This document shows positions 45,242 through 56,730 of a stretch of DNA of 64,000 nt, piece after piece. The position numbers were made by a program, and so were the translations under genes. The stretch spans positions 32,842 to 96,841 of the forward strand of contig JACQWK010000220.1 in the NCBI GenBank assembly GCA_016209525.1. Reading direction: 5' to 3'. Numbering within the stretch: position 1 is the stretch's first letter; each line of letters begins with the position of its first letter. The notes under the pieces are model-generated. The model was not told the origin of the DNA and made no database searches. It saw only the letters and a program-made list of their open reading frames with translations. The DNA is from Verrucomicrobiota bacterium (GTDB taxonomy: Bacteria; Verrucomicrobiota; Verrucomicrobiia; Limisphaerales; SIBE01).

Positions 45242-45587
45242 GTGTTGCCCGGAAGTTGAGCAGGATTCAAGTCGCGGTGGAAGCTCGCAGTGGGCAATGG
45301 GGTCGGTTCTTGACTTTTAATCCGGTCGCCTTCAGAGCCTGGTCCGAATCCACGAACCGAGAGGCTTGGCTCTGCGCGCTCGGCGCGACTCCAAGGACGA
45401 ACGGTGTCAGGATCAAAAGTCAAGGACTGACCCCTAGGCGGATTGTCAACAACCTGCCAACACTCGGTCGATAACTTCCAACAACTCTGACTTTCTTGAG
45501 CCGGTCCGTCGCGGGATAAAAGGGCCATGAATGACCTATTCTCTGAGGAACGATTCAAGGCCCTCCTTGCGACGGCGGAGGTCTGAC

Positions 45588-46730
45588 ATGAGCGAATACC
45601 AATACTACGAATTCCAGGCCATCGACCGCCGCCTTGGCGAAAAAGAAATGCAGGAGTTGCGTGGCTATTCCTCGCGGGCCCGCATCACAGCAACCAGTTT
45701 CGTCAACGAATACTCCTTCGGCAGCTTCAAAGGAAACGCCGACGTCTGGATGGAGAAGTATTTCGACGGCTACCTCTACAGCGCGAACTGGGGGACTCAC
45801 GTCCTCCAGCTTCGTCTGCCCGCCAAGTTGCTGTCCGCAGAAACAGCGCAACTCTATTGCCAGGACGATCCGGCTTCCGTCCGAGAGAAGTCCGGCAATG
45901 TCATCTTGACGTTTAGGTCCGAGGAAGAAGGCGGAGGCGAATGGGTCGATGCCGACGGCCTTCTCTCGTCGATCCTTCCCATCCGCGACGATCTCGCCCG
46001 GGGCGATCTCCGAAGCCTGTATCTGGCCTGGTTGTTGTGCGTCCAGGAAGGCGATCTGGACGACGACCACCTGGAACCGCCTGTGCCCGCCAACCTGGGC
46101 GAATTGTCCGGCCCGCTCTCAAGCCTCGCCGAATTCCTCCGAATCGATTCAGACCTGCTGGACGTCGCCGAGGAGGCAAGTCCCAGGATAAGATCGGATT
46201 CGTCCGATCGAAGGGAGATGTCGGATTGGGTGGCGTCGCTTCCCGCGAAAGAAAAGGATGAGCTGCTTCTCCGGCTCATGGACGGCGGGGACGCACACCT
46301 CGGAACGGAGCTTTGTTCTCGCTTTCGCCGAACTCGGTCGGGGCGCTCGCCTGTTGCCGAATCTCCGCGCCGCACGGTGGCGGCGCTTCGGTCCGCCGCC
46401 GAGGATCGGGAGTTGACTCGACGGGACGAAGCAGCCCGGAAAGTGGCCGAAGAATTCGCCAGCCGCAAACGGGAAGCGGCTCTCGTCCGCGAGAGGCATT
46501 TAGACGCCGTCGCGGGTCGGGTGCCGGAACTATGGAAGACCGTGGACGACCTCATCGCGACCAAGCTGCCGAAAAACTATGATGCGGCGGTCCTGCATCT
46601 CGTGGACCTGCGCGATCTGGCCACTCGACACGGGACGCAAGCTGATTTTGCTGAGAGGATCGCCGCCGTTCGCGACGCTCAGAGCCGCAAACCATCATTC
46701 ATTGACCGGCTCAACCGGATCGGATTGTGA
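45588..46730 (+). CDS. Uncharacterised protein A (conserved YQYYEF N-terminal module plus helical C-terminal domain)
   Basis: ATG 45588 is preceded by GGCGGAGG. Reads MSEYQYYEFQAIDRRLGEKEMQELRGYSSRARITATSFVNEYSFGSFKGNADVWMEKYFDGYLYSANWGTH.., then ..LRSLYLAWLL..EPPVPANLGELSGPLSSLAEFLRID.., and a C-terminal ..YDAAVLHLVDLRDLATRHGTQADFAERIAAVRDAQSRKPSFIDRL. No catalytic motif seen. Confidence 0.75.
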   Translation: MSEYQYYEFQAIDRRLGEKEMQELRGYSSRARITATSFVNEYSFGSFKGNADVWMEKYFDGYLYSANWGTHVLQLRLPAKLLSAETAQLYCQDDPASVREKSGNVILTFRSEEEGGGEWVDADGLLSSILPIRDDLARGDLRSLYLAWLLCVQEGDLDDDHLEPPVPANLGELSGPLSSLAEFLRIDSDLLDVAEEASPRIRSDSSDRREMSDWVASLPAKEKDELLLRLMDGGDAHLGTELCSRFRRTRSGRSPVAESPRRTVAALRSAAEDRELTRRDEAARKVAEEFASRKREAALVRERHLDAVAGRVPELWKTVDDLIATKLPKNYDAAVLHLVDLRDLATRHGTQADFAERIAAVRDAQSRKPSFIDRLNRIGL

Positions 46731-46957
46731 CTCCTGATGTTGCATAGGCCGCCAACATCCCCTGCCCATGAACCGCGGAGCGCCGGTCCCCGATCCGGCG
46801 TGATTCTCTGCCTCATGTCAGACCTCAGAAAAATAAAAGATTCAGGCCGGGGAAGGTGGTCGATTCCGTTCCCCAATTTCTCTGTTCTCTCCGTTGCCTC
46901 ATGTTCGGAAAACAGGAGCAAACGGAGGAAGCGGAGAGGGCTAATTGTGCGCTTGTC

Positions 46958-48367
46958 ATGACGAAGCAAGAAATGCTCAACACGATGTGCCTGGTTGAAT
47001 TGAGTCAGGCTGACGTCAAAGCGATTGGCCGATGCCGTGGATTCGAGGCCGAGGTCGTCGCATCCCGCGCTTTGCTGCAACACGTCTTTCTCTCAGAACA
47101 AGGAGTGCGCGAAGCGCTGGCGTCGCTTACCGAAATGGAGATTCTCGGTCTGCACCTGTTGAATCACCGTGCCGAGGCCGTCGGAGTGGAATTCTTCAAG
47201 CGCGTTTATCCCGGTTCAGTGACCCACGACCTTTATCTCAGCCACACGGCGCGCTACAAAGGCCTTCTCCAACTGGTCAAAACAAACCTGGTCCGGCGCG
47301 GCGTGCTCGTGTTCTGCGCCCTGCCGCAGAGGCTGGACAAGACGTCGGCATCGGAGCGGCTGCGATTTTGCTTCCCCGACGAATTCAGCCCGTTCTTGCC
47401 CACGCCGTTTCAGCCGCGCCGCTTGGCCGCGGCTGTGTCGAGGCAATATCGGAAGACCGTGGTGCCAGAGAAGCTGGCCGAGATTCTCGAACTGGAGCGT
47501 GCGCCGGTGGGCAAACCGTCCGGGCGGGAAGAGGCCCGCTGGCGGCTGGCCAACGGGGAATTGCTGTTCGGCGGGAAACCCTTCGCCGTCGAACGATTCA
47601 AAGCCTGGCCAGCAACTCAGCTTGCAGAAAGCTATCCCGGCGCCGGCAAAGAACAGGCCGAGGGGTTTCGGCCCGTCTCCCTGCTCCTCTACGCGCTGTT
47701 CCGTCTTGGGGAAAACGAATGGTTGGCGCCCGGCGATCTGTTGCCGATCTGGAAATTGGGATTGCCGGGCGGCAAAGCACCGGAGCCGCGAACGGTCTGC
47801 GAAGCGGGTTTCGATTGCGGGTTGCTGGAAAAAGTCGAAGAGGACGGGACGAGTCTTTACCGCTGGCGCGGGCTGGTCGAAACCGCGCCGGACGCGCCTC
47901 CGGATGATTTTCTGGAGGTTCAGAATCCGGACGAAATTCGAATCGATTTGGCGCGCGTTCCCTTGGAGGGTTTGGAGCGGCTGAACGAGGTTGCACGGCT
48001 TCGAGTTGCGGAGGGCAGTCTGTGGGCCGCTCCGAGTCTCCTGAAAATCAGCCATGCGCCGGCTGCGACGCTGCAGGCCCCGATCTTTCGCTGGTTGCAG
48101 GAGAATCATGCGGCTTTCAGAGCCGTGGTGGACAAGATCGAACAGAAGCGCGGTCACCTGATCGTTCACGAGAACCTCGCCGTGGCGAAGGTGAACGATC
48201 CGGCACTGCGAGTCATGCTGGAAAAGGAATTCGGGACGCCCGGCCAACTGGTGGCGCTCTCGAGTGGCTATATTGCGTTTCCTAGCGGACTCCTGCCGCA
48301 GGTTCAGTCCTGGATGAAAAAGTCCGGCCACGTCATCAAGACCGTTTCCGCCCATGACACCGATTAA
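46958..48367 (+). CDS. Uncharacterised protein B with helicase-associated-like C-terminal module
   Basis: ORF 46856..48367; candidate starts are ATG 46901 and 46958. C-terminus reads ..FLEVQNPDEIRIDLARVP..GHLIVHENLAVAKVNDPALRVMLEKEF..FPSGLLPQVQSWMKKSGHVIKTV. Paralogous to C/D. Confidence 0.7.
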   Translation: MTKQEMLNTMCLVELSQADVKAIGRCRGFEAEVVASRALLQHVFLSEQGVREALASLTEMEILGLHLLNHRAEAVGVEFFKRVYPGSVTHDLYLSHTARYKGLLQLVKTNLVRRGVLVFCALPQRLDKTSASERLRFCFPDEFSPFLPTPFQPRRLAAAVSRQYRKTVVPEKLAEILELERAPVGKPSGREEARWRLANGELLFGGKPFAVERFKAWPATQLAESYPGAGKEQAEGFRPVSLLLYALFRLGENEWLAPGDLLPIWKLGLPGGKAPEPRTVCEAGFDCGLLEKVEEDGTSLYRWRGLVETAPDAPPDDFLEVQNPDEIRIDLARVPLEGLERLNEVARLRVAEGSLWAAPSLLKISHAPAATLQAPIFRWLQENHAAFRAVVDKIEQKRGHLIVHENLAVAKVNDPALRVMLEKEFGTPGQLVALSSGYIAFPSGLLPQVQSWMKKSGHVIKTVSAHDTD

Positions 48368-49622
48368 CCTCGCAGAAGCCGAAATAACGGACCTGGAAGT
48401 CGTCGCCAATGCTGCCGACTTGCGGCAAGACATCCATGTTTTCGTGGATTACGCGCGAAGCCATGAAATCAAGCGCGGGCATCGCGACAACCAAATCCCG
48501 CTCGCGCACCGGCAACGCCTCGCCAAGCTCATGAGCGATCCGAACTCGGCGGCGCACTCCGATGAAGACGGCTTTTCACCCTGGATCGAACACGTGGACT
48601 CGGTGTGCTTGGCGCTTGGACTCGTCCGCTATGAGACCGAGGGAATTTATGTCGGATACACCAGTTCGAGTCCTTCGTTCCCGGATAATTACGTCAAGTG
48701 CAGCGGGGACGTGCACGAAGAATTTCTCGGCCTTTCGCTTCAAGAACAAGAGGAACGCATTCTGAACGTTCACCTCAAGGACGGCAACGCCGGGGCCAGC
48801 GAGTTCTTCAGCCGGAGCCCTTTGAGCCAACTGGACCGTTTTGACGCGTGGGGTTCCGCCACCGGCGTGGTCCCTACCATTCAGTTTCTCAAGGTCCGGC
48901 GGCACCTGTTGGATTTGCTGGCGCAGTGCCCGATCGGAGTCTGGTTTAGCACGAAGTCGCTGATCGAGCATCTCCGGCGGCACGACCCGTGGTTTCTGAT
49001 CCCGGAACGGGTCCCCGCCGCCGTGCAAGCACGGGGGATGCACGCGGACCGCTACGCCAATTTCATCGAGCGAAAACGCGGCGACTGGGGAAATCGCAAT
49101 CCGATTTCCGACCGCGACCCGGAAGGATTCGTGAAGGTGGAAGGGCGGTATGTCGAACGTTTCTTGGAGGGAATCCCACTGGTCCTCGGCTACACCGAGG
49201 TGGCCTACGCCAGGCGGAAGATCGAAAGCGAGATCGAGCCGTCCCGAGGCTTGCTCCGCGCTTTCCGAATCACGGAACGATTGCAACCCGCGATGCGGCA
49301 GCGGATCGCGGCCCCCAAAGTCACCGTGCTGCCCAATTTCGAGGTCCACGTCGAATCGCCGTTCTTCCCGGCGAAAACCGAAGCGCAATTGCTTCCGTTG
49401 GGCGAGTTGGCGCAACGCGGCATCGTCACCGTTTTCAGATTGACCAAGCCGAAGGTGGCGGCGTTCATGGCGGCCAATCCTAAGGTGAGCGCCATTGGCA
49501 CCCTCCAGGAACTCTCCGGACGCCATCTCCCCTCCAATGTGGAGCAGGAGTTGACCGACTGGGCTGGGCATTCGGAAAAATTCATCCTGTATGAAGGGTT
49601 TGGTCTGCTTGAGGGGCTATAG
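48354..49622 (+). CDS. Uncharacterised protein C (paralogue of B), ends at an in-frame TAG inside the shared C-terminal module
   Basis: ATG 48354 overlaps the 3' end of gene B by 14 nt. C-terminus reads ..VTVLPNFEVHVESPFFP..VFRLTKPKVAAFMAAN..LPSNVEQELTDWAGHSEKFILYEGFGLLEGL*. Confidence 0.7.
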   Translation: MTPINLAEAEITDLEVVANAADLRQDIHVFVDYARSHEIKRGHRDNQIPLAHRQRLAKLMSDPNSAAHSDEDGFSPWIEHVDSVCLALGLVRYETEGIYVGYTSSSPSFPDNYVKCSGDVHEEFLGLSLQEQEERILNVHLKDGNAGASEFFSRSPLSQLDRFDAWGSATGVVPTIQFLKVRRHLLDLLAQCPIGVWFSTKSLIEHLRRHDPWFLIPERVPAAVQARGMHADRYANFIERKRGDWGNRNPISDRDPEGFVKVEGRYVERFLEGIPLVLGYTEVAYARRKIESEIEPSRGLLRAFRITERLQPAMRQRIAAPKVTVLPNFEVHVESPFFPAKTEAQLLPLGELAQRGIVTVFRLTKPKVAAFMAANPKVSAIGTLQELSGRHLPSNVEQELTDWAGHSEKFILYEGFGLLEGL

Positions 49623-49646
49623 GAGGAATCCGGCGCGAACCGCATC

Positions 49647-50054
49647 GTGGTCGAGACGATTTCCCCAGAGTTCGCTCTCGTGCGTACACCGGAGAAGCTT
49701 TACCAACAACTGGAAGCAGCCGAGCAGGTGCCGCTCAGGATTCGTCACTCGGAAAACGCCTTGGCAGCGCCGCCAGATGTGCGGAGCCGTGTGGCGCCCA
49801 GCGCTACGCCGCCTCGCGCTGCCGCCAAAAAGCCGGCCAAAGTCCGGCGAAGCGTTGAGACCACGCTCTGGTTCTCCGACGCAGAAGCCCACGCCGCATT
49901 CAGCAAGCTGCTGCTCGATGCCAAATGCGTGGTTCCAACCGATTCGCACGCCCTCACCGTCAGCTACCCAAGGAAAGCGGAACCGCTAGTCAAAGAGTGT
50001 CTGAAAGAACTCAACGAACAGTTTGCGGTGGCAGTGGAAGATATCGAGAAATGA
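49647..50054 (+). CDS. Uncharacterised protein D; same frame as C and probably its severed C-terminus
   Basis: GTG 49647 is in frame with C, separated only by TAG plus 8 sense codons. It continues the module (VETISPEFALVRTPEKLYQQLEAAEQVPLRI), followed by a basic linker (AAKKPAKVRR) and a small terminal domain. Confidence 0.5.
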   Translation: MVETISPEFALVRTPEKLYQQLEAAEQVPLRIRHSENALAAPPDVRSRVAPSATPPRAAAKKPAKVRRSVETTLWFSDAEAHAAFSKLLLDAKCVVPTDSHALTVSYPRKAEPLVKECLKELNEQFAVAVEDIEK

Positions 50055-50132
50055 CCTCAGCAAATCTTCGCCGCCGCTTCCCTGCGTGAGCGGAACGAGC
50101 TAATGAGATCTCGTCTGTCCCTAGACTCGTGG

Positions 50133-50560
50133 CAGTCGTTCATGAAGGCCGCCGAGCAGTTCCCGCGTGCCTTGGGACCATGAACCGGGTTGGAGCGCCG
50201 GCCTCCGGCCCGGCCCGTTGCGATCCAGTGCCGGTTTCGCGCCGGGCCGGAGGGCGGCGCCCCGGTTCATCGAGATCCTCCAAGCCCTCGGGGCGTGCCT
50301 GGGGACCGTGAACCGAGAATGGGCCCGGAGCGCGGGCGGCTCGCCCGCACCTTCGGACCAGGGCGAGAAACTCGCGGGCGAGCCGCCCGCGCTCCAATCA
50401 GGCGGTTCATGGAGAGCCTCCAAGCCCAAGAGGCGTGCATTGGGACCATGAACCGAAGCCGCCGACGTGAGGAGGCGGATATTGGTTTCACCCACGTCTT
50501 CCGCTTCGTTACCTCGGCGGCTGCGAACCGTCGGTTCAAGGAGAGCGCCCACGCAACAGC
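50133..50560. repeat. Array of stacked REP hairpins
   Basis: Three to four units of CGGTTCAT..N..GGGACCATGAACCG (50133-50186, 50263-50315, 50403-50455, partial from 50532). They are interleaved with a perfect 22-bp inverted repeat (GGAGCGCGGGCGGCTCGCCCGC 50327-50348 / 50374-50395) and family 1 copy c (50455-50524). Confidence 0.8.
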
Positions 50561-50898
50561 ACGGTAGTAAGGGGCCAGTATCAACCGGGCGACGACGGCC
50601 AGCGCTTTCTCGTGAACATTCTGAGTGAGCAAACGGCCGCACCGCGAACGCTCACCGTCGTGCTGAACTGGGCGTCGCTCGTGGAGAAGAAATGATCGGC
50701 GCCCGTCTGAAGAATCATAGCCGTCGACGTGCGGAGGCTCTGGACGATCTGCAATTCTAAATTGGAGATTTCACATTCTCGGTAAGGCGAAGCGTCCCTG
50801 CTGAGCCGGTCACGCAACATGGCTTCAAAAACTTGTCGGCTCGCCGGGACGGACTCGCCCTACCGCTTAGAATGCTGAATTTAACAGTAGTGTACACG

Positions 50899-51068
50899 GG
50901 CCCTCTCCCTTGGGGAGAGGGAGGAGTGTTCACTGCGGCTCGACCAGGCGGACCTGGGCAGTTTTTCCATACGCGAGCGGTGCTGTTTCCCTCTCCCTGG
51001 GGAGAGATCGCAGGATAGATTGCATTTCCTTCCCCCTCACCCCGGCCCTCTCCCCCGGGGAGAGGGAG
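50899..51068. repeat. Three CCCTCTCCC..GGGGAGAGGG hairpins
   Basis: 50899-50924, 50989-51006 and 51036-51068 (CTCACCCCGGCCCTCTCCCCCGGGGAGAGGGAG). Confidence 0.7.
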
Positions 51069-51297
51069 AAACGTTCGCCGCAGCTTGGCTGTGCGTGGCT
51101 CAACGATTAACCAACTGCGCGAGGAGGGCGACGGATTCGTCGTAGGCGGCTTTGTAGGTGTAGTCGGGCGGGCCGTCGCAGGTGGCAAGGCGCTTGGCTT
51201 CGGCGGCGTGGTGCAGGGCGGTCTCGCGTTGGGCGGGAGTGGCGCGCTTGATGGCCTCGCTCAAGGTTTCCGGTAGGGGCGCGTTGCCGCGCGTCCC

Positions 51298-53064
51298 TTA
51301 TATTTGGGCCGAACGGCAGCTTGGCCCTACCGAGTAGAAGTCCAGGGCGAGCTTGGAGAGTTCGAGGTGAGCGTCCGCGCCTTGCAGGACGTAGCCGCTG
51401 CGCTCAGTGATGAGCAGCGCCTCCTCGGCCAAGCGCCGGGCCTCGTCCGGCGCGCCGGTGACGGCGCGCAGCCGCGCCAGGTCAATGAGGATGTTGGCTT
51501 CGTGGTCCACCATGTTGATGCGGCGGCAGCGTTCCAGCGCTTCGTGCAGGTGGCGCTCGGCTTCGTCGTGCTGTCCGGCGACGCGATGGGCCGCGCCCAG
51601 CAGCCAGTGGGAGCGGATGTAATCGCGCGCGTTTGGACGGTCGGTGCGTGCGTCCTCATCCGCCAGTTCCAGTGCGCGGCGAGCCAGCGGGATTGCCAAT
51701 TTGCGATTTGCGATTTGCGATTGCCGAAGCTCCATCTCGCGCAGCGTGAGTAGTTCGCGAAGGGCGCGGTGGGCAGAGTTTACACCATGCCCTTGCAGAT
51801 TCTCGCGCCAGACCTTGATCTTCAGCGCCGTCGCCAGTTCCATTTCCGATTTATGGTATACCCCGCGGTAGGCCAGAAGCCTGCCCAATTCCTGGTGCCC
51901 AATCGCCTCATGCCACTCGTCCTTGATCTCCCGGCTAAGCGCGAAGCGGCGGCGCAGGTTGGCCTCGGCGTCCCGCAGCGCGCCAATGGGCATGCATGCG
52001 GCGTAAGCAACGGCCCCCAAGCCGATGGCGAGGTTGCGCTTGTCGCCGTGTCGCTCGCGGATGGCGTTCGACTGCTCGTACAGCGGCACGGCGCGGCGGG
52101 GCTGGCCACTGAGGCTGTAGGCGTTCGCAAGTTCGTTCAAGGCGTGAGCTTGATCGCTTTCGTCTTCCAGGCGTGGCAGGGGTTGTTCGCCTCCAGGGAA
52201 GAGCGCACGCAGCAGGTCAATTTGAACGAGGTAGCCGCCAAGTTGGTAGTAAAGCGTTTGCCAGATTCTGTCGCGAAAAAGCGTCCACGCCTCGTCAAAC
52301 TGTCCGGCGCGGACGGTGTGGTGATAGAGTTCGATCACCGGGGCCAGGTCTTCCAGGCTCTTTACCTTGTCCGGCCGGGGCACGGCGGCGAAGTAATCGC
52401 GCAGGCGGACGTGGGCGGCGGCGCGATCGGGCGCGGCCAGCCGGTCGTAGGCATAGCGGCGCACGATGGGGTGCAGGTCGAACCGGGCCTCTTTGGTGTC
52501 GTGGTGCAGCAGCCCGCGCGCGACGAGATCGCGGAGGTCGGTGTCGAGGTTCGCCGCATCGGAGCGCCGGTCTCCGACCCGGCCCGCTGCCGGACTGGAA
52601 TCTCGCCGGGCCGGAGGCCGGCGCTCCGACTCCGGCGGCTTGCCCACCGCGGTGAGGAGCTGGCGCCAGGCGATATCAAAGTCCGCGCCCTCGGTGAAGT
52701 CGATGTGAGTGAGCGCCGCAATGAAGTCCGCATCCTCGGGGAAATCGCATGGCCGAAAGAGTAGAGGGATGGTGCGCGACTCACGTCCGGAAGGCTTTCC
52801 TTGCCGGCCAAGCAGGCCTTCGAACATCGTCCATTCGCTGGCGAACCAGTCCTTCGAAATGACCAGCAGGCTGCGGCGGCTGCGGCGGACGGCGTCCTGC
52901 ATGTTGAGCAAGGCATTTCGACCAGCCTGGAAGTCACGGAAATCAATGCATACCTTCAATCCCGCTGTTTCGAGGCGCGGCAGCAGCTTCCCCCTCACCC
53001 ACGCCTTGTCGCGGCTGCTGTACGAGATGAAGACATCGAACTCGTATTCCGGTTGGTCTGGCAC
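51298..53064 (-). CDS. TIR domain - winged-helix - TPR protein (no NTPase domain)
   Basis: ORF 51298..53094; GTG 53064 has a GGAGG 7 nt upstream. TIR region: EYEFDVFISYSSRDKAWVRGKLLPRLETAGLKVCIDFRDFQAGRN..RRSLLVISKDWFASEWTMFE. STAND-type WH: LRDLVARGLLHHDTKEARFDLHPIVRRYAYDRL. About 380 aa of TPR-like helices follow. No GxxxxGK[ST] anywhere. Confidence 0.85.
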   Translation of the reverse strand: MPDQPEYEFDVFISYSSRDKAWVRGKLLPRLETAGLKVCIDFRDFQAGRNALLNMQDAVRRSRRSLLVISKDWFASEWTMFEGLLGRQGKPSGRESRTIPLLFRPCDFPEDADFIAALTHIDFTEGADFDIAWRQLLTAVGKPPESERRPPARRDSSPAAGRVGDRRSDAANLDTDLRDLVARGLLHHDTKEARFDLHPIVRRYAYDRLAAPDRAAAHVRLRDYFAAVPRPDKVKSLEDLAPVIELYHHTVRAGQFDEAWTLFRDRIWQTLYYQLGGYLVQIDLLRALFPGGEQPLPRLEDESDQAHALNELANAYSLSGQPRRAVPLYEQSNAIRERHGDKRNLAIGLGAVAYAACMPIGALRDAEANLRRRFALSREIKDEWHEAIGHQELGRLLAYRGVYHKSEMELATALKIKVWRENLQGHGVNSAHRALRELLTLREMELRQSQIANRKLAIPLARRALELADEDARTDRPNARDYIRSHWLLGAAHRVAGQHDEAERHLHEALERCRRINMVDHEANILIDLARLRAVTGAPDEARRLAEEALLITERSGYVLQGADAHLELSKLALDFYSVGPSCRSAQI

Positions 53065-53139
53065 GAATTTACCTCCGACCTGATGGGCTCCCAAGGCTCA
53101 TTGGAATTGTATGATAAACATCCCTGCGGGCGCCGCCGA

Positions 53140-53727
53140 TCACAAAGAGCGAACGTCGCGCAAAATGAAGATGACGTAGCTTTGGAGGCCTTCGCGCTCG
53201 GCCGTGAGTTTGCCCAGGTAAACACCGCTCAGCCAGTCGCGCGGAATCTTCAGCGACGCGCACGGCTCCCATTGGCAATCACGCACCCGCTTTGGGCCGA
53301 TGGGCGGATCGGCTTGTGTCGTCCCGTGGAACGGCCCCACCGTGAGCAGATGCCGTCCGCCTATGCCGCCGTAGTATCCCATGCGATAGAGATCGATGGT
53401 GAACGCCGACGCCGGATTCGCGCTGACGAAGAACCGGATCGTTTCGCCCGCGCGAAGGCTCGTGTCCGAGCAGAAGCCTTCAATCCAAGGGCATCGATAT
53501 TTGGTGGCGAGATCAATCCTCGTATTCTTCAACATCCAGTCGCGCGTGCCGGGCTTTTGGTTTTCGCGCTGGACTCGGTCGCTTCGCGACGATGTCTCGA
53601 GGGACGCGCAACCTGGCCACATGGCAGCCGCGCCCAATCCCATGGCGCCCTTGAGCAAATTGCGACGAGCGATGCCGTTTGAGTCCTGCGATCCGGGCGA
53701 AGTCGTGGGAGTGTGTTTGTGTTGCAT
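53140..53727 (-). pseudogene. N-terminal fragment (Tat signal plus first domain) of an N,N-dimethylformamidase-beta-subunit-like family protein
   Basis: RRNLLKGAMGLGAAAMWPGCA, then IEGFCSDTSLRAGETIRFFVSANP..IDLYRMGYYGGIGGRH..IPRDWLSGVYLGKLTAE..SYVIFILRD. It stops after 195 aa, whereas from memory family members continue for several hundred residues. Confidence 0.55.
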
Positions 53728-54123
53728 AAGCGAAGTGGTCTAGGCATTCGGCCAGCACGCGAGCAGATTGGCAATCCTCCGTAGCAGGAGAGTCACCCCT
53801 GATTCATGGCTGCGCCGCAGCGCAGCCCTGCCGAGCACTGATTATTCATGGCTGAATCGGCCATTTTCGAGGCCCAAGGCGTTCGCATAGCTAATCTCCA
53901 GTCCATGCTTTCGAGTTTCTGTAGGACGAGCTGGTGTTCGTAATGTCGCAGCATATCGCGGAGAACCGGTAGGTTGCTTCGTGGTTTTGAAGTTGTCGGT
54001 TGAACAAATACCAGGTAGAAGGAATCGCAATGGTGATGCCATGACTGTAGCGCTAATCACGGTTAAAGCTCGGCATGGCTTCTTAAGGACAGCGAAACCG
54101 AGCCTGCTAGAAAGAGGACGGCC

Positions 54124-54864
54124 ATGTTCGATGCCGAGAAATATACCGATGTCCAAAAAACAATTGGCTGCGCCAACGGCGCTTTGATCGTCGCGTTGCT
54201 GGTCGTCTGCTACATGTTTGTACTTTCACCTGGGGACAAGGCGGCGATCGAGGGAGTCCTAGGCAAGCTTAAGAGTGCCTTGGTCGGTTCAATAGTTTCT
54301 CTCGCACTGGTAGGCGCGGTTTGGGCTTACCTGACCAGCGCCTTGATCAGACTCCACGACGGTGTATACGAACCCCACCTCGTAAAATGGCGTGCCAGCT
54401 ATGATTCAGATTTCATACTGCGAAGCCTTTGTGCCGATTATTCCCATCTGATCGACCGGGCCGCGTTTGAAAAGGCCTACCGCGACCGTGTCCTTCGCGA
54501 CAAGATGATGTCACGACTCTTTTACAGTTTTGTCGGTGATTTCGAGAAGAATCATGCTGGGTTGCTGAGCCACTTTTATACGAACATTCGAGACTATTGG
54601 ATCATTGTGACCGCTGAGCTCTATTGCCTCGCAGGGTTGATCGCGTTTTCAGCTTACGGTGCTTTTAGAGACTATCGGAAAAGCACCTTGGTCAGCTTGT
54701 TGGTTCTCGTCCTGCTCGCGGTTGGCCTAAGATTGTGGTCGAAGCGGTATCTCGACACAGCCAGACAGTTTACGAGCGAGCAGGTATCCGTGATTCTTAC
54801 GGAACACAAGAAGGACTTCGAACAAAGACTCGAGAAGCTGGCCAATGAGGAGAGGCTGAAGTAG
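54124..54864 (+). CDS. Uncharacterised four-TM membrane protein
   Basis: ATG is preceded by GAGGACGG. TM pairs: ALIVALLVVCYMFVL / LVGSIVSLALVGAVWAYL and YWIIVTAELYCLAGLIAFSAY / LVSLLVLVLLAVGLRLW. A soluble loop lies between them. Codon usage is visibly AT-richer. Confidence 0.7.
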   Translation: MFDAEKYTDVQKTIGCANGALIVALLVVCYMFVLSPGDKAAIEGVLGKLKSALVGSIVSLALVGAVWAYLTSALIRLHDGVYEPHLVKWRASYDSDFILRSLCADYSHLIDRAAFEKAYRDRVLRDKMMSRLFYSFVGDFEKNHAGLLSHFYTNIRDYWIIVTAELYCLAGLIAFSAYGAFRDYRKSTLVSLLVLVLLAVGLRLWSKRYLDTARQFTSEQVSVILTEHKKDFEQRLEKLANEERLK

Positions 54865-54873
54865 AGGACGGGT

Positions 54874-55539
54874 TTGAAGCGAATAATCCAGACAGAACTC
54901 TCGGCACTGGGAATTCGAAAAGCATCAAGTCCCCGACTGAAACCTTTAATCGCAAGATTAGCCGAATTACAGGATGCAGGGCTTCTCTCGCATGACCCTT
55001 TGATCGTAGATCAAGGTTGTGGGCAACTCCGGATAACGAAAGAACTTCTCAAGCATTATCATCGCATCGTTGTCGTCGAGACAGACTTCCAGCTCTCGCG
55101 TAAGCACAAGTTCTTTGACGAGAAGTTGACAATCCCCGAGTTCCTCAAGTTGAGATGGTCGAACCACCGTATCGAAGTAATGTCGTCGACACGCTTTGCG
55201 AAATCACAGCTCCGGGCCGACGTCGTGTTTTCAGTCAATGTGCTCGACGTCACACCTCCGCACACCAGAGGCTCGATATTGAGGGCCGCTAGGCAAAACA
55301 TTTCGCAAAATGGCGTTTTTGCAGTTATCGTTCCGAAGAACGAAAGTTGGACACTTCGGCTATGCACGAAGGAGCGTAAACACGCGGATGGTTTCGTTTT
55401 CTCAAATCATCGGGCTCACACTTTCTACAAGAACTGGCAAGCCGCGCCTTTGAGAAAGTTGCTCAAGAGGTATGGTTTTCTGGTTTGGGAGGATCTTTCA
55501 CGCTTTCGCATCGCGTGTTTGATCTGCAAGCCGTGCTGA
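54874..55539 (+). CDS. Class-I SAM-dependent methyltransferase-like protein
   Basis: TTG start with GAGGA 5-9 nt upstream and no upstream ATG. Motif I-like LIVDQGCGQLR, acidic post-I IVVVETD, ADVVFSVNVLDV and ISQNGVFAVIVP. Confidence 0.6.
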   Translation: MKRIIQTELSALGIRKASSPRLKPLIARLAELQDAGLLSHDPLIVDQGCGQLRITKELLKHYHRIVVVETDFQLSRKHKFFDEKLTIPEFLKLRWSNHRIEVMSSTRFAKSQLRADVVFSVNVLDVTPPHTRGSILRAARQNISQNGVFAVIVPKNESWTLRLCTKERKHADGFVFSNHRAHTFYKNWQAAPLRKLLKRYGFLVWEDLSRFRIACLICKPC

Positions 55540-55746
55540 TCTCGGCCTGCCTTTTTCTTGGCCCTACGCCTTCGCACCGTTATTCTCAAGTCCGTGCTGG
55601 GAGAACGAATAGCTTTCAGGCGTCTCCAGAAGCCGTACGGGTCCCGGTTAGTGTCGGTAACTGTCGCTTGGCTGGCCGTCACGCAGCTCGCGCAGGGGAC
55701 GAATGGCGATCGAGTCGGCGAAGGGACAACCACCCGTCGAGACAGG

Positions 55747-56730
55747 ATGCTTTCTTCGGCGTTGGCGACAGGAACAGCTCAACTCTTCCTTCGTGCCAGT
55801 CAACTTGGTTACTGCCCCGCTGATCCGAAGAACGCAATGGCGTTCGGCGACGGTCCCCTTCCCGAGCATTTCGCCGTCGTGGACGCCGCGTCTGGCAAGG
55901 AAGTGTTCCGCGGCGTGCCAAAACCATTACCCGGCGAGCACTGGGGCCGATTCCAGAATCACGCCGAATTGGACTTCACAGCGCTCCGCAGCCCTGGCCG
56001 GTTTCGCGTCGCGATGGGCGGATTTAGTTCGCACCCCTTCGTCATCGCCGCCGACGCGTTCGCAACGCTCCCCGATGCCTGCCTTGAGTTCATGCGCCAG
56101 CAACGCTGCGGCAACAATCCGTGGCTCGGCACAAATTGCCATCAACTTGACGGGCGCACTGCCTATGGCCCCGTGCCCGCCGGTACACCAATCGACGCCC
56201 GCGGGGGCTGGCATGATGCGGGCGACCTGTTAAAATATCTGCTCACCTCCGGCAACGCGACCGCCCAGATGCTCCTGGCGTGGCAACTCACCAACTCCGC
56301 CTCTGGTGACCGAGTTGACGCCCTGGGCAATCCCCGCACAAACGGCATCCCGGACATCCTCGACGAAGCACGCTGGGGACTCGACTGGATGCTCAAGCTT
56401 CATCCGGCGCCGGACCAACTCTATCACCAAGTCGCCGACGACCGCGATCACATCGGCTTCCGCTTGCCCCAAAACGAAACCGCAGATTACGGCTGGGGCA
56501 AAGGCGGGCCGCGCGTTGTGTATGCCGCGGATGGCCAAGCCCAGGGTCTTTCTCAGTTCAAGAGCGCATCGACCGGCCTGGCCAATCTCGCGGGCCGTCA
56601 CGCCGCGGCGCTCGCGCTTGCTTGGCAAGTCTGGCAGAACGACTTCCACGATTACTCCACTAACGAGCCCACGATGGACGGCACGGCTTCGGCATTGCTG
56701 CTTTGGTCGCTCTGCAATTACGCACGCTAA
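55747..56730 (+). pseudogene. Glycoside hydrolase family 9 gene with large internal in-frame deletion and no signal peptide
   Basis: Ig-like N-domain (QLGYCPADPK..FAVVDAASGKEVF..PGRFRVAMGG..SHPFVI). GH9 motifs GGWHDAGDLLKY and DILDEARWGLDWMLK. AAALALAWQVWQN is then joined directly to the family C-terminus DYSTNEPTMDGTASALLLW. Confidence 0.6.

Follow-up and report, generated by a model that had tools for sequence, protein, structure and literature searches.

The 64,000-nucleotide (nt) stretch analyzed here, referred to as the window, is part of contig JACQWK010000220.1 of the Verrucomicrobiota bacterium assembly GCA_016209525.1, and it encodes a protein with an N-terminal TIR domain and a C-terminal TPR-like solenoid (MBI4659657.1). 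This open reading frame (ORF) is probably a recently disabled deletion/insertion derivative of a TIR-STAND-TPR gene, i.e., a young pseudogene and not a new kind of sensor. Two lesions set it apart from its full-length relatives. The first is an in-frame deletion of ~1 kb (~320-350 codons depending on the reference), with which the nucleotide-binding domain (NBD), HD1, and helices 1-3 of the winged-helix domain (WHD) are gone. The second is a 102-nt insertion that interrupts the C-terminus, which was overlooked in an earlier note on this DNA made from the letters alone. The gene lies on a Verrucomicrobia metagenome-assembled genome (MAG) contig, and NCBI labels its product a "toll/interleukin-1 receptor domain-containing protein." The ORF can be extended (51298..53094, minus strand) to a TTG located 30 nt upstream at 53094, which gives a protein of 598 amino acids (aa), and residue numbering throughout follows this version. 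The annotated gene and the parts of it that derive from the parent are as follows.

51298..53064, minus strand: annotated coding sequence (CDS) MBI4659657.1, 588 aa, GTG start at 53064 (NCBI)
52648..53040, minus strand: TIR domain, residues 19-149 (Pfam, PDB matches, AlphaFold2 predicted local distance difference test score (pLDDT) of ~80-93, invariant columns)
52630..52644, minus strand: GKPPE, the first 5 residues of the 20-aa linker between TIR and NBD (alignment, DNA comparison)
52438..52548, minus strand: winged-helix remnant LDTDLRDLVARGLLHHD...HPIVRRYAYDRL (alignment, homologue model, alignment to the PH0952 WHD)
51343..52434, minus strand: TPR-like solenoid, residues 221-584 (~65-70% identical to full-length homologues)

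The TIR domain is recognized by Pfam (TIR_2 at residues 21-147, E=3e-23; TIR at 1.4e-11) and has matches to TIR structures in the PDB (TLR1, 1.6e-14; AbTIR, 4.7e-6). An AlphaFold2 model of the window protein was built with 59 homologues (mean pLDDT 85.5), and in it the TIR region is made of alternating strands and helices. E92, within the motif SEW-TMF-E, is invariant across 60 family members, and at the sequence level SEWTMFE aligns with SEWCHYE of TLR1. E92 is the putative counterpart of SARM1 E642 and of the catalytic Glu of plant TIRs (the W-x3-E motif in the helix after strand C). At the other end of the protein, TPR_12 and related Pfam TPR families match between residues 310 and 570, and the model shows a helical solenoid at 221-598 with pLDDT >90. 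In the model, residues 158-179 (22 residues) are disordered, with pLDDT <50, and residues 180-217 form a helix-wing-helix of low confidence (pLDDT ~60). The winged-helix remnant consists of the recognition helix, the wing, and the last helix, which are the final three of the six secondary-structure elements of a WHD. The matching elements in the homologue model are H317-328, E333-342, and H345-354.

Neither a Walker A motif ([AG]xxxxGK[ST]) nor a Walker B motif (hhhhD[DEG]) was found in the window protein by regular expression, and it contains no GK[ST] anywhere. HD1, with its GxP-like GYHPLSL motif, and a complete WHD are not present in it either. A cryptic NTPase fold at residues 150-200 was considered and ruled out. 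The segment has only 22-30 residues and is encoded by a hairpin, and because residues 158-179 are disordered in the AlphaFold2 model, no NTPase fold is hidden there. An NTPase encoded separately in the window was likewise rejected, as tblastn with three full-length homologues returned the TIR block and the winged-helix-TPR block only. PADLOC and NCBIfam, run on the protein, its homologues, and its neighbors, detected TIR or TPR pieces only and no named defense system. The earlier note had read the TIR domain, the TPR-like helices (~380 aa there, ~370 aa here), and the lack of P-loop and Walker motifs correctly. Its Pro/Arg/Ser-rich linker is present, but was not recognized as the translation of a 71-nt palindrome resembling repetitive extragenic palindromes (REPs). 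Its winged-helix motif stands for the C-terminal half only, the three preceding helices being deleted according to the alignment and the homologue model.

The window protein is the sole short one (588 aa) among the 120 best matches in a search of 5.8 billion proteins. The next-best 119 homologues are all 907-1024 aa long and are 57-69% identical to it overall. By block, identity is 58-70% for the TIR and 65-70% from the winged-helix remnant through the TPR, with the blocks collinear. The alignment has one large gap in the window protein, and there all 119 nearest homologues carry a ~330-aa NB-ARC-like STAND NTPase. Within the gap the homologues have ALGGFGKS (Walker A, Ala first), LLVLDGFE (Walker B), LLTTR, GYHPLSLRLL, and the start of the WHD. 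An AlphaFold2 model of the homologue central module (pLDDT 73.6) has its best PDB fold matches in PH0952, Apaf-1, NRC2, CED-4, RPP1, and Roq1 (E 2.5e-7 to 1e-4, probability 1.0). The STAND class of the missing module is assigned because the fold search matched. Pfam NB-ARC had no match to three full-length homologues at E ≤0.1, and a sequence profile matched the PDB weakly (the STAND-TPR protein PH0952, 6mfv, at 0.061; an NLRP at 0.16). Judged by its predicted fold, the missing part is an NB-ARC-like STAND nucleotide-binding oligomerization module (NOD). The Avs and bNACHT models of PADLOC did not match the family.

The parent family is thus a widespread single-gene TIR / NB-ARC-like STAND NTPase / winged-helix / TPR protein of ~910-1000 aa. 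It shares a TIR effector, a STAND NOD, and a TPR sensor with plant TNPs (TIR-NB-ARC-TPR; PMC9806590, PMC12856790) and with NLR/Avs/bNACHT sensors, whereas a NOD is missing from the window protein. As present in the parent family, the deleted module has a fold like that of plant NLRs, Apaf-1, and CED-4, while the likeness to plant TNPs is one of layout. By analogy with such proteins, the parent would be an NLR-like conflict sensor in which the TPR binds a trigger, the NTPase drives oligomerization, and the clustered TIRs hydrolyze NAD+. Its TIR NADase would then be activated by NTP-dependent, trigger-induced oligomerization. The closest comparison for the window protein itself is with uncharacterized full-length proteins such as P0005, P0030, and NCBI entries titled "TIR domain-containing protein" from MAGs of Planctomycetota, Verrucomicrobiota, Acidobacteriota, and Chloroflexota. 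They have the same N-terminal length, the same GKPPE linker start, and the same C-terminal motif, which in the window lies downstream of the stop. Compared with them, the window protein is missing the ~330-aa NBD-HD1 as well as one half of the WHD and has lost the connection to its C-terminal cap, and no other such form was found. For NLR-like sensors, the full-length proteins show unusual conservation, the TPR "sensor" included, across MAGs labeled Planctomycetota, Verrucomicrobiota, Acidobacteriota, Chloroflexota, and Phycisphaerales. This conservation suggests recent horizontal spread or a conserved ligand.

The deletion could be mapped cleanly by alignment to the full-length homologues: it starts in the 20-aa TIR-NBD linker and stops at a hairpin of the winged-helix loop. 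The hairpin is the REP-like palindrome, which occurs in the window as two full copies and one partial copy.

52557..52629, minus strand: REP-like palindrome, 71-73 nt, arms 52559-52583 and 52605-52629, in-frame translation SERRPPARRDSSPAAGRVGDRRSD
50192..50263, unstranded: second full copy, in the intergenic tract 50055-51099 downstream of the gene
46776-46799: partial copy of an arm

The arms of the palindrome are 25 nt each and 92% complementary, and as RNA it has a minimum free energy (MFE) of -70.6 kcal/mol (z -5.8). The exact 22-nt arm is found at at least 120 loci of GTDB genomes. Among the matches listed, nearly all are from Verrucomicrobiota (Limisphaerales, Pedosphaera, and similar), with several arm copies per MAG, and the complementary arm usually comes next, beyond a variable loop. 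Exact arm copies were also seen at eleven loci on contigs binned as Bifidobacterium, Bifidobacteriaceae, Akkermansia muciniphila, or Klebsiella. At least the Bifidobacterium-type and Klebsiella contigs are probably mis-binned contigs of Verrucomicrobiota.

The 71-nt palindrome recurs, again in frame (ERRPPARRGASPPERRVGDRRSD), in the winged-helix loop of P0030, a full-length homologue of 968 aa. There the element sits between ALKALTET and LDADLRDL, and its distance in nucleotides to the LD codons equals that in the window. Compared with P0030, the window shows no mismatch in either arm (24 and 26 nt), against 75-82% identity in the flanking coding DNA. By our own estimate, 50 consecutive identities at a background of ~80% have a probability of the order of 1e-5. 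This leaves two explanations, constraint on the arms or their recent insertion. Because P0030 holds the same element in its winged-helix loop, the deletion is read as running from the 20-aa TIR-NBD linker to the left edge of the hairpin, and we infer from this comparison that the parent gene carried the palindrome in its winged-helix loop too. The junction in the window reads GGC AAG CCG CCG GAG / TCG GAG CGC CGG..., with the GKPPE codons abutting the left arm. The left breakpoint is immediately 3' of GKPPE, between 52630 and 52629, and the right end is exactly at the left arm of the palindrome. Homologue linker DNA has CCG GAG CCG GAG CC and the arm starts (T)CGGAGCGCC, with the stretch CGGAG(C) in common. 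Hairpin-associated slippage or illegitimate recombination may have joined the linker (..CCGGAGCCGGAGCC..) with the arm (TCGGAGCGCC..) at this microhomology. As a site for such slippage, CGGAG(C) is a plausible candidate. No target-site duplication is evident at the junction.

A repetitive palindrome at a breakpoint also raises the question of assembly, since the real gene could be full length, with ~1 kb skipped by the assembler at the repeat. In favor of this, the contig comes from a MAG, the right breakpoint falls at a dispersed repeat that has at least two further copies within 6 kb and is very common in the phylum, and two neighboring genes look truncated as well. A collapse of this kind, however, needs a repeat copy at the left breakpoint too. 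In 93/93 homologues where a pattern could locate it, the TIR-NBD linker has a constant 20 aa and no insert, and therefore none of them has a second repeat copy at that position. In the window, the left flank passes directly from the GKPPE codons into the hairpin arm, and the junction is in frame. ORFs of 1950, 1551, and 1185 aa elsewhere in the window speak against a poor assembly, and a collapse could not generate the 3' insertion. We regard an assembly artifact as unlikely.

The second lesion lies just beyond the solenoid. Its two parts were delimited by comparison with the full-length homologues.

51241..51342, minus strand: in-frame insertion of 102 nt (34 codons) (tblastn, DNA comparison with P0030 and P0005)
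51100..51240, minus strand: orphaned original 3' end, in the same frame past the stop, encoding TPAQRETALHHAAEAKRLATCDGPPDYTYKAAYDESVALLAQLVNR, with TGA at 51100-51102

The insertion encodes DFYSVGPSCRSAQI, then a TAA at 51298-51300, then GTRGNAPLPETLSEAIKRA, and it supplies the last 14 codons of the ORF and its stop. Past the insertion, the family sequence resumes as TPAQRETALHHAAEAKRLATCDGPPDYTYKAAYDESVALLAQL, and tblastn with full-length homologues crosses the stop of the ORF in the same frame as far as 51112. The near-invariant C-terminal motif of the family (CDGPPDYTYKAAYDE; ..LATCDGPPDYTYKAAYDE..) is therefore outside the window protein, being encoded in 51100-51240 after the TAA. The orphaned remnant retains 16/16 of the near-invariant C-terminal residues of the family. 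The insertion has an imperfect palindromic core, CGGTAGGG...CCCTACCG, at 51271-51332, and similar right arms occur as partial matches in two other loci among 0.8 Mb of Verrucomicrobiota loci searched. Its fold is not significant (z -0.8), the window holds no second copy, and an exact 26-mer from it is absent from metagenome contigs. Because of these three results, its identity as a repeat element is tentative.

Both lesions appear to be recent. The window protein deviates from the family at 2/132 columns that are ≥95% conserved, compared with a family mean of 3.2 (standard deviation 2.2), a test slightly biased in its favor because the homologues were chosen by similarity to the query. Decay by point mutation was thus considered and could not be demonstrated in this way, there being no excess of substitutions at conserved columns. 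Neither the retained segments nor the untranslated C-terminal remnant shows erosion, and the lesions would therefore be recent. Recency accounts for the intact retained parts and for the intact remnant, whereas continued selection accounts for the retained parts only.

Several observations weigh against a disabled gene. Both lesions keep the frame and leave 588 codons open, which on sequence grounds is equally expected of a functional short protein still under selection. All conserved positions of the TIR and TPR, among them E92, are unchanged, and NCBI annotates the gene as an ordinary CDS. The ancestral state is reconstructed from homologues that are at most 75% identical and not from a sister allele, and the exact breakpoints and the microhomology are therefore no more than plausible placements. 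Sensor-effector fusions without a NOD also work elsewhere: Dsr1 shares the sensor of Avs7 (PMC13581612), and SpbK is a TIR protein activated by direct binding to a phage protein (PMC12847820).

These observations could point to a functional sensor-effector of the Dsr1/DSR2 or SpbK kind, whose TIR would be activated or clustered by a trigger-bound TPR with no NTPase involved, or alternatively to a decoy or modulator of intact paralogues encoded elsewhere in the genome. Such a protein would be consistent with the open 588-codon ORF and its two in-frame lesions, with the intact E92 and the conserved positions free of a substitution excess, and with TIR and TPR domains that fold confidently in the model. 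It would have precedents in the reuse of STAND sensors without the NTPase (PMC13581612) and in directly activated TIRs (PMC12847820). The short form, however, is a singleton. It is a one-member cluster on one contig, and no other NTPase-less TIR+TPR form was found among the best 150 representatives in a HMMER search of 1.84 billion cluster representatives. One candidate relative, P0125 (747 aa, starting with LDADLRDL), was rejected, as it is one part of a full-length gene that a stop in the winged-helix loop has divided, the NTPase being encoded by the ORF immediately upstream on its contig. The remaining short matches were rejected as contig-edge fragments. The WHD of the window protein is halved (pLDDT ~60), and the near-invariant C-terminal cap is severed by a stop. 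Lastly, recency explains the absence of decay equally well, the untranslated C-terminal remnant being just as intact. Dsr1/DSR2 (SIR2 plus a helical sensor) and SpbK also combine an NADase effector and a helical-repeat sensor with no NTPase (PMC13581612, PMC11850899, PMC12847820), but they are conserved, experimentally active families, whereas the window protein stands alone, with one domain half deleted and its C-terminus cut short. The sequence relationship between them and the window protein is limited to the TIR and TPR folds. On balance, a working sensor without a NOD is improbable. Of the two options left open in the earlier note, clean loss of the switch domain is supported by the 119 full-length homologues, the singleton status, and the mapped gap, and a fusion that naturally lacks the NTPase, conserved as a lineage, is not supported.

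If the disabled gene is still expressed, its product would be a TIR on a disordered tether to an uncapped TPR. It would be without an oligomerization platform, and the half winged helix would not be able to fold. The product is most likely inert and the allele one of loss of function, because the scaffold is deleted, half of the winged helix is left, and the conserved cap is removed. An inert product fits with the presence of the allele in a genome abundant enough for assembly.

The deleted NOD is the oligomerization scaffold of STAND proteins. Its loss had been expected in the earlier note to deregulate an NAD-degrading effector, and the allele could in principle be a toxin, with loss of the NTPase switch lifting autoinhibition and producing a constitutive NAD+-degrading TIR. 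The NOD and the sensor do keep STAND effectors inactive, as in apo SeAvs7, which is autoinhibited through NTPase-sensor contacts (PMC13581612), and the putative catalytic motif of the TIR is intact in the window protein. According to PMC10899771, however, TIR catalysis and thus NADase activity depend on oligomerization. Constitutive activity is unlikely because the scaffold needed for TIR activation was lost. Constitutive toxicity should also have kept the allele from lasting in a genome whose abundance sufficed for assembly, and this genome is apparently viable. The additional truncating insertion suggests that the gene is no longer maintained. We consider deregulation very unlikely, the least likely of the readings, and the expectation of the earlier note doubtful.

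The winged-helix loop in which the deletion ends is a recurrent site of in-frame insertion, with inserts in more than half of the family members. Loop length is bimodal in 99 homologues, with 1-7 residues in ~40/99 and 15-52 residues in 55/99. At the DNA level, 4/5 of the long loops inspected are strong palindromes of unrelated families.

P0038 (L126): loop palindrome, MFE -59.3 kcal/mol, z -10.4, 25-bp perfect stem
P0013 (L128): loop palindrome, MFE -56.9 kcal/mol, z -6.1, two tandem hairpins
P0020 (L125): loop palindrome, MFE -37.2 kcal/mol, z -5.7
P0030 (L001): loop palindrome, MFE -61.7 kcal/mol, z -4.8

The long loop of P0056, the fifth inspected, is not palindromic (z +0.9). The same loop holds one deletion breakpoint, in the window, and one gene split, in locus L124. 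In L124 (1-3302), a stop in this loop (..ALKALAVEERRETRR, stop, then MKRSGES...LDADLRDL) divides an otherwise full-length member of the family, and the downstream part has an extra TIR-like domain C-terminal to the normal C-terminal cap. Repeat-like inserts also occur in a second loop, located in the NBD (GVPPA...GKDACRY; P0046 and P0030). The loop hairpins hint at hot spots for the remodeling or killing of NLR-like genes. Taken further, REP-like palindromes in the winged-helix loop could be recombinogenic joints that remodel the architecture of the family, with the window allele a newborn and still functional TIR-TPR sensor-effector without a NOD. We find this version quite unlikely.

The palindromes resemble Rickettsia palindromic elements and other elements of the miniature inverted-repeat transposable element (MITE)/REP type (PMC10969869), in that a dispersed palindrome is translated in frame in a surface loop, as in the winged-helix loop of P0030. 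The "linker" of the window protein is the same element, and other family members hold different palindromes in that loop. Compared with the Rickettsia elements, those of this family are shorter (~70-105 nt vs. ~150 bp), GC-rich, and of several unrelated families. They are found here in free-living phyla (Verrucomicrobiota, Planctomycetota, and similar), and the copy in the window marks a deletion breakpoint.

As a gene, MBI4659657.1 matters little, since it most likely represents an NLR-like defense or conflict gene that was inactivated only recently. Inactivation is a common fate of costly abortive-infection genes. As a natural "delta-NOD" allele with TIR and TPR intact, it is a ready construct for studying the role of the NTPase in TIR activation vs. 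autoinhibition. It also calls for caution in annotation, as the low-complexity "linker" is repeat DNA read as protein, and two lesions are concealed in the CDS as deposited.

The gene has a G+C content of 65% compared with 59% for the window. The intergenic tract downstream of it (50055-51099) is dense with palindromes and with direct repeats of 23-54 nt that lie 128-145 nt apart (D1, D3, D4, I4, I5, I7, I8). Rfam, run on 49900-54200, gave only sub-threshold matches to generic hairpins (miRNA precursors), and Tandem Repeats Finder detected nothing in the tract. Beyond the tract, 45531-50054 (plus strand) holds a four-gene cluster on the same strand (399, 503, 422, and 135 aa), for which Pfam, NCBIfam, and PADLOC returned only a weak Helicase_C_3 match (5.7e-5) to the third protein. 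No recognizable defense genes were found among the neighbors with PADLOC and NCBIfam, and the small ORFs upstream of P0030 (L001/L002) have no counterpart in the window.

On the other side of the TIR gene, a 195-aa ORF (53140-53727, minus strand) with a signal resembling those of twin-arginine translocation (RRNLLKG) ends 46 nt before it. This ORF covers only the first 83/374 positions of Pfam DMFA2_C, and its PDB relative is 775 aa long. It appears to be the 5' piece of a DMFA2-like gene that was far larger. It is followed at 54124-55539 (plus strand) by a two-gene insert of low GC (0.50 vs. 0.59), encoding a membrane protein and a class I methyltransferase (weak PADLOC match to mad2, 6.8e-6), which is probably foreign DNA. 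Because a repeat-packed tract, a DMFA2-like fragment, a low-GC insert, and a shortened GH9 gene surround the TIR gene, the neighborhood gives the impression of a region in which rearrangement and gene loss have occurred. The last of these, at 55558-56730 (plus strand), is a GH9 endoglucanase-like ORF of 390 aa that aligns to residues ~19-251 of GH9 enzymes of 537-577 aa and nonetheless terminates in a GH9-like C-terminal motif (DYSTNEPTMDGTASALLL). It probably carries an in-frame internal deletion similar in kind to that of the TIR gene.

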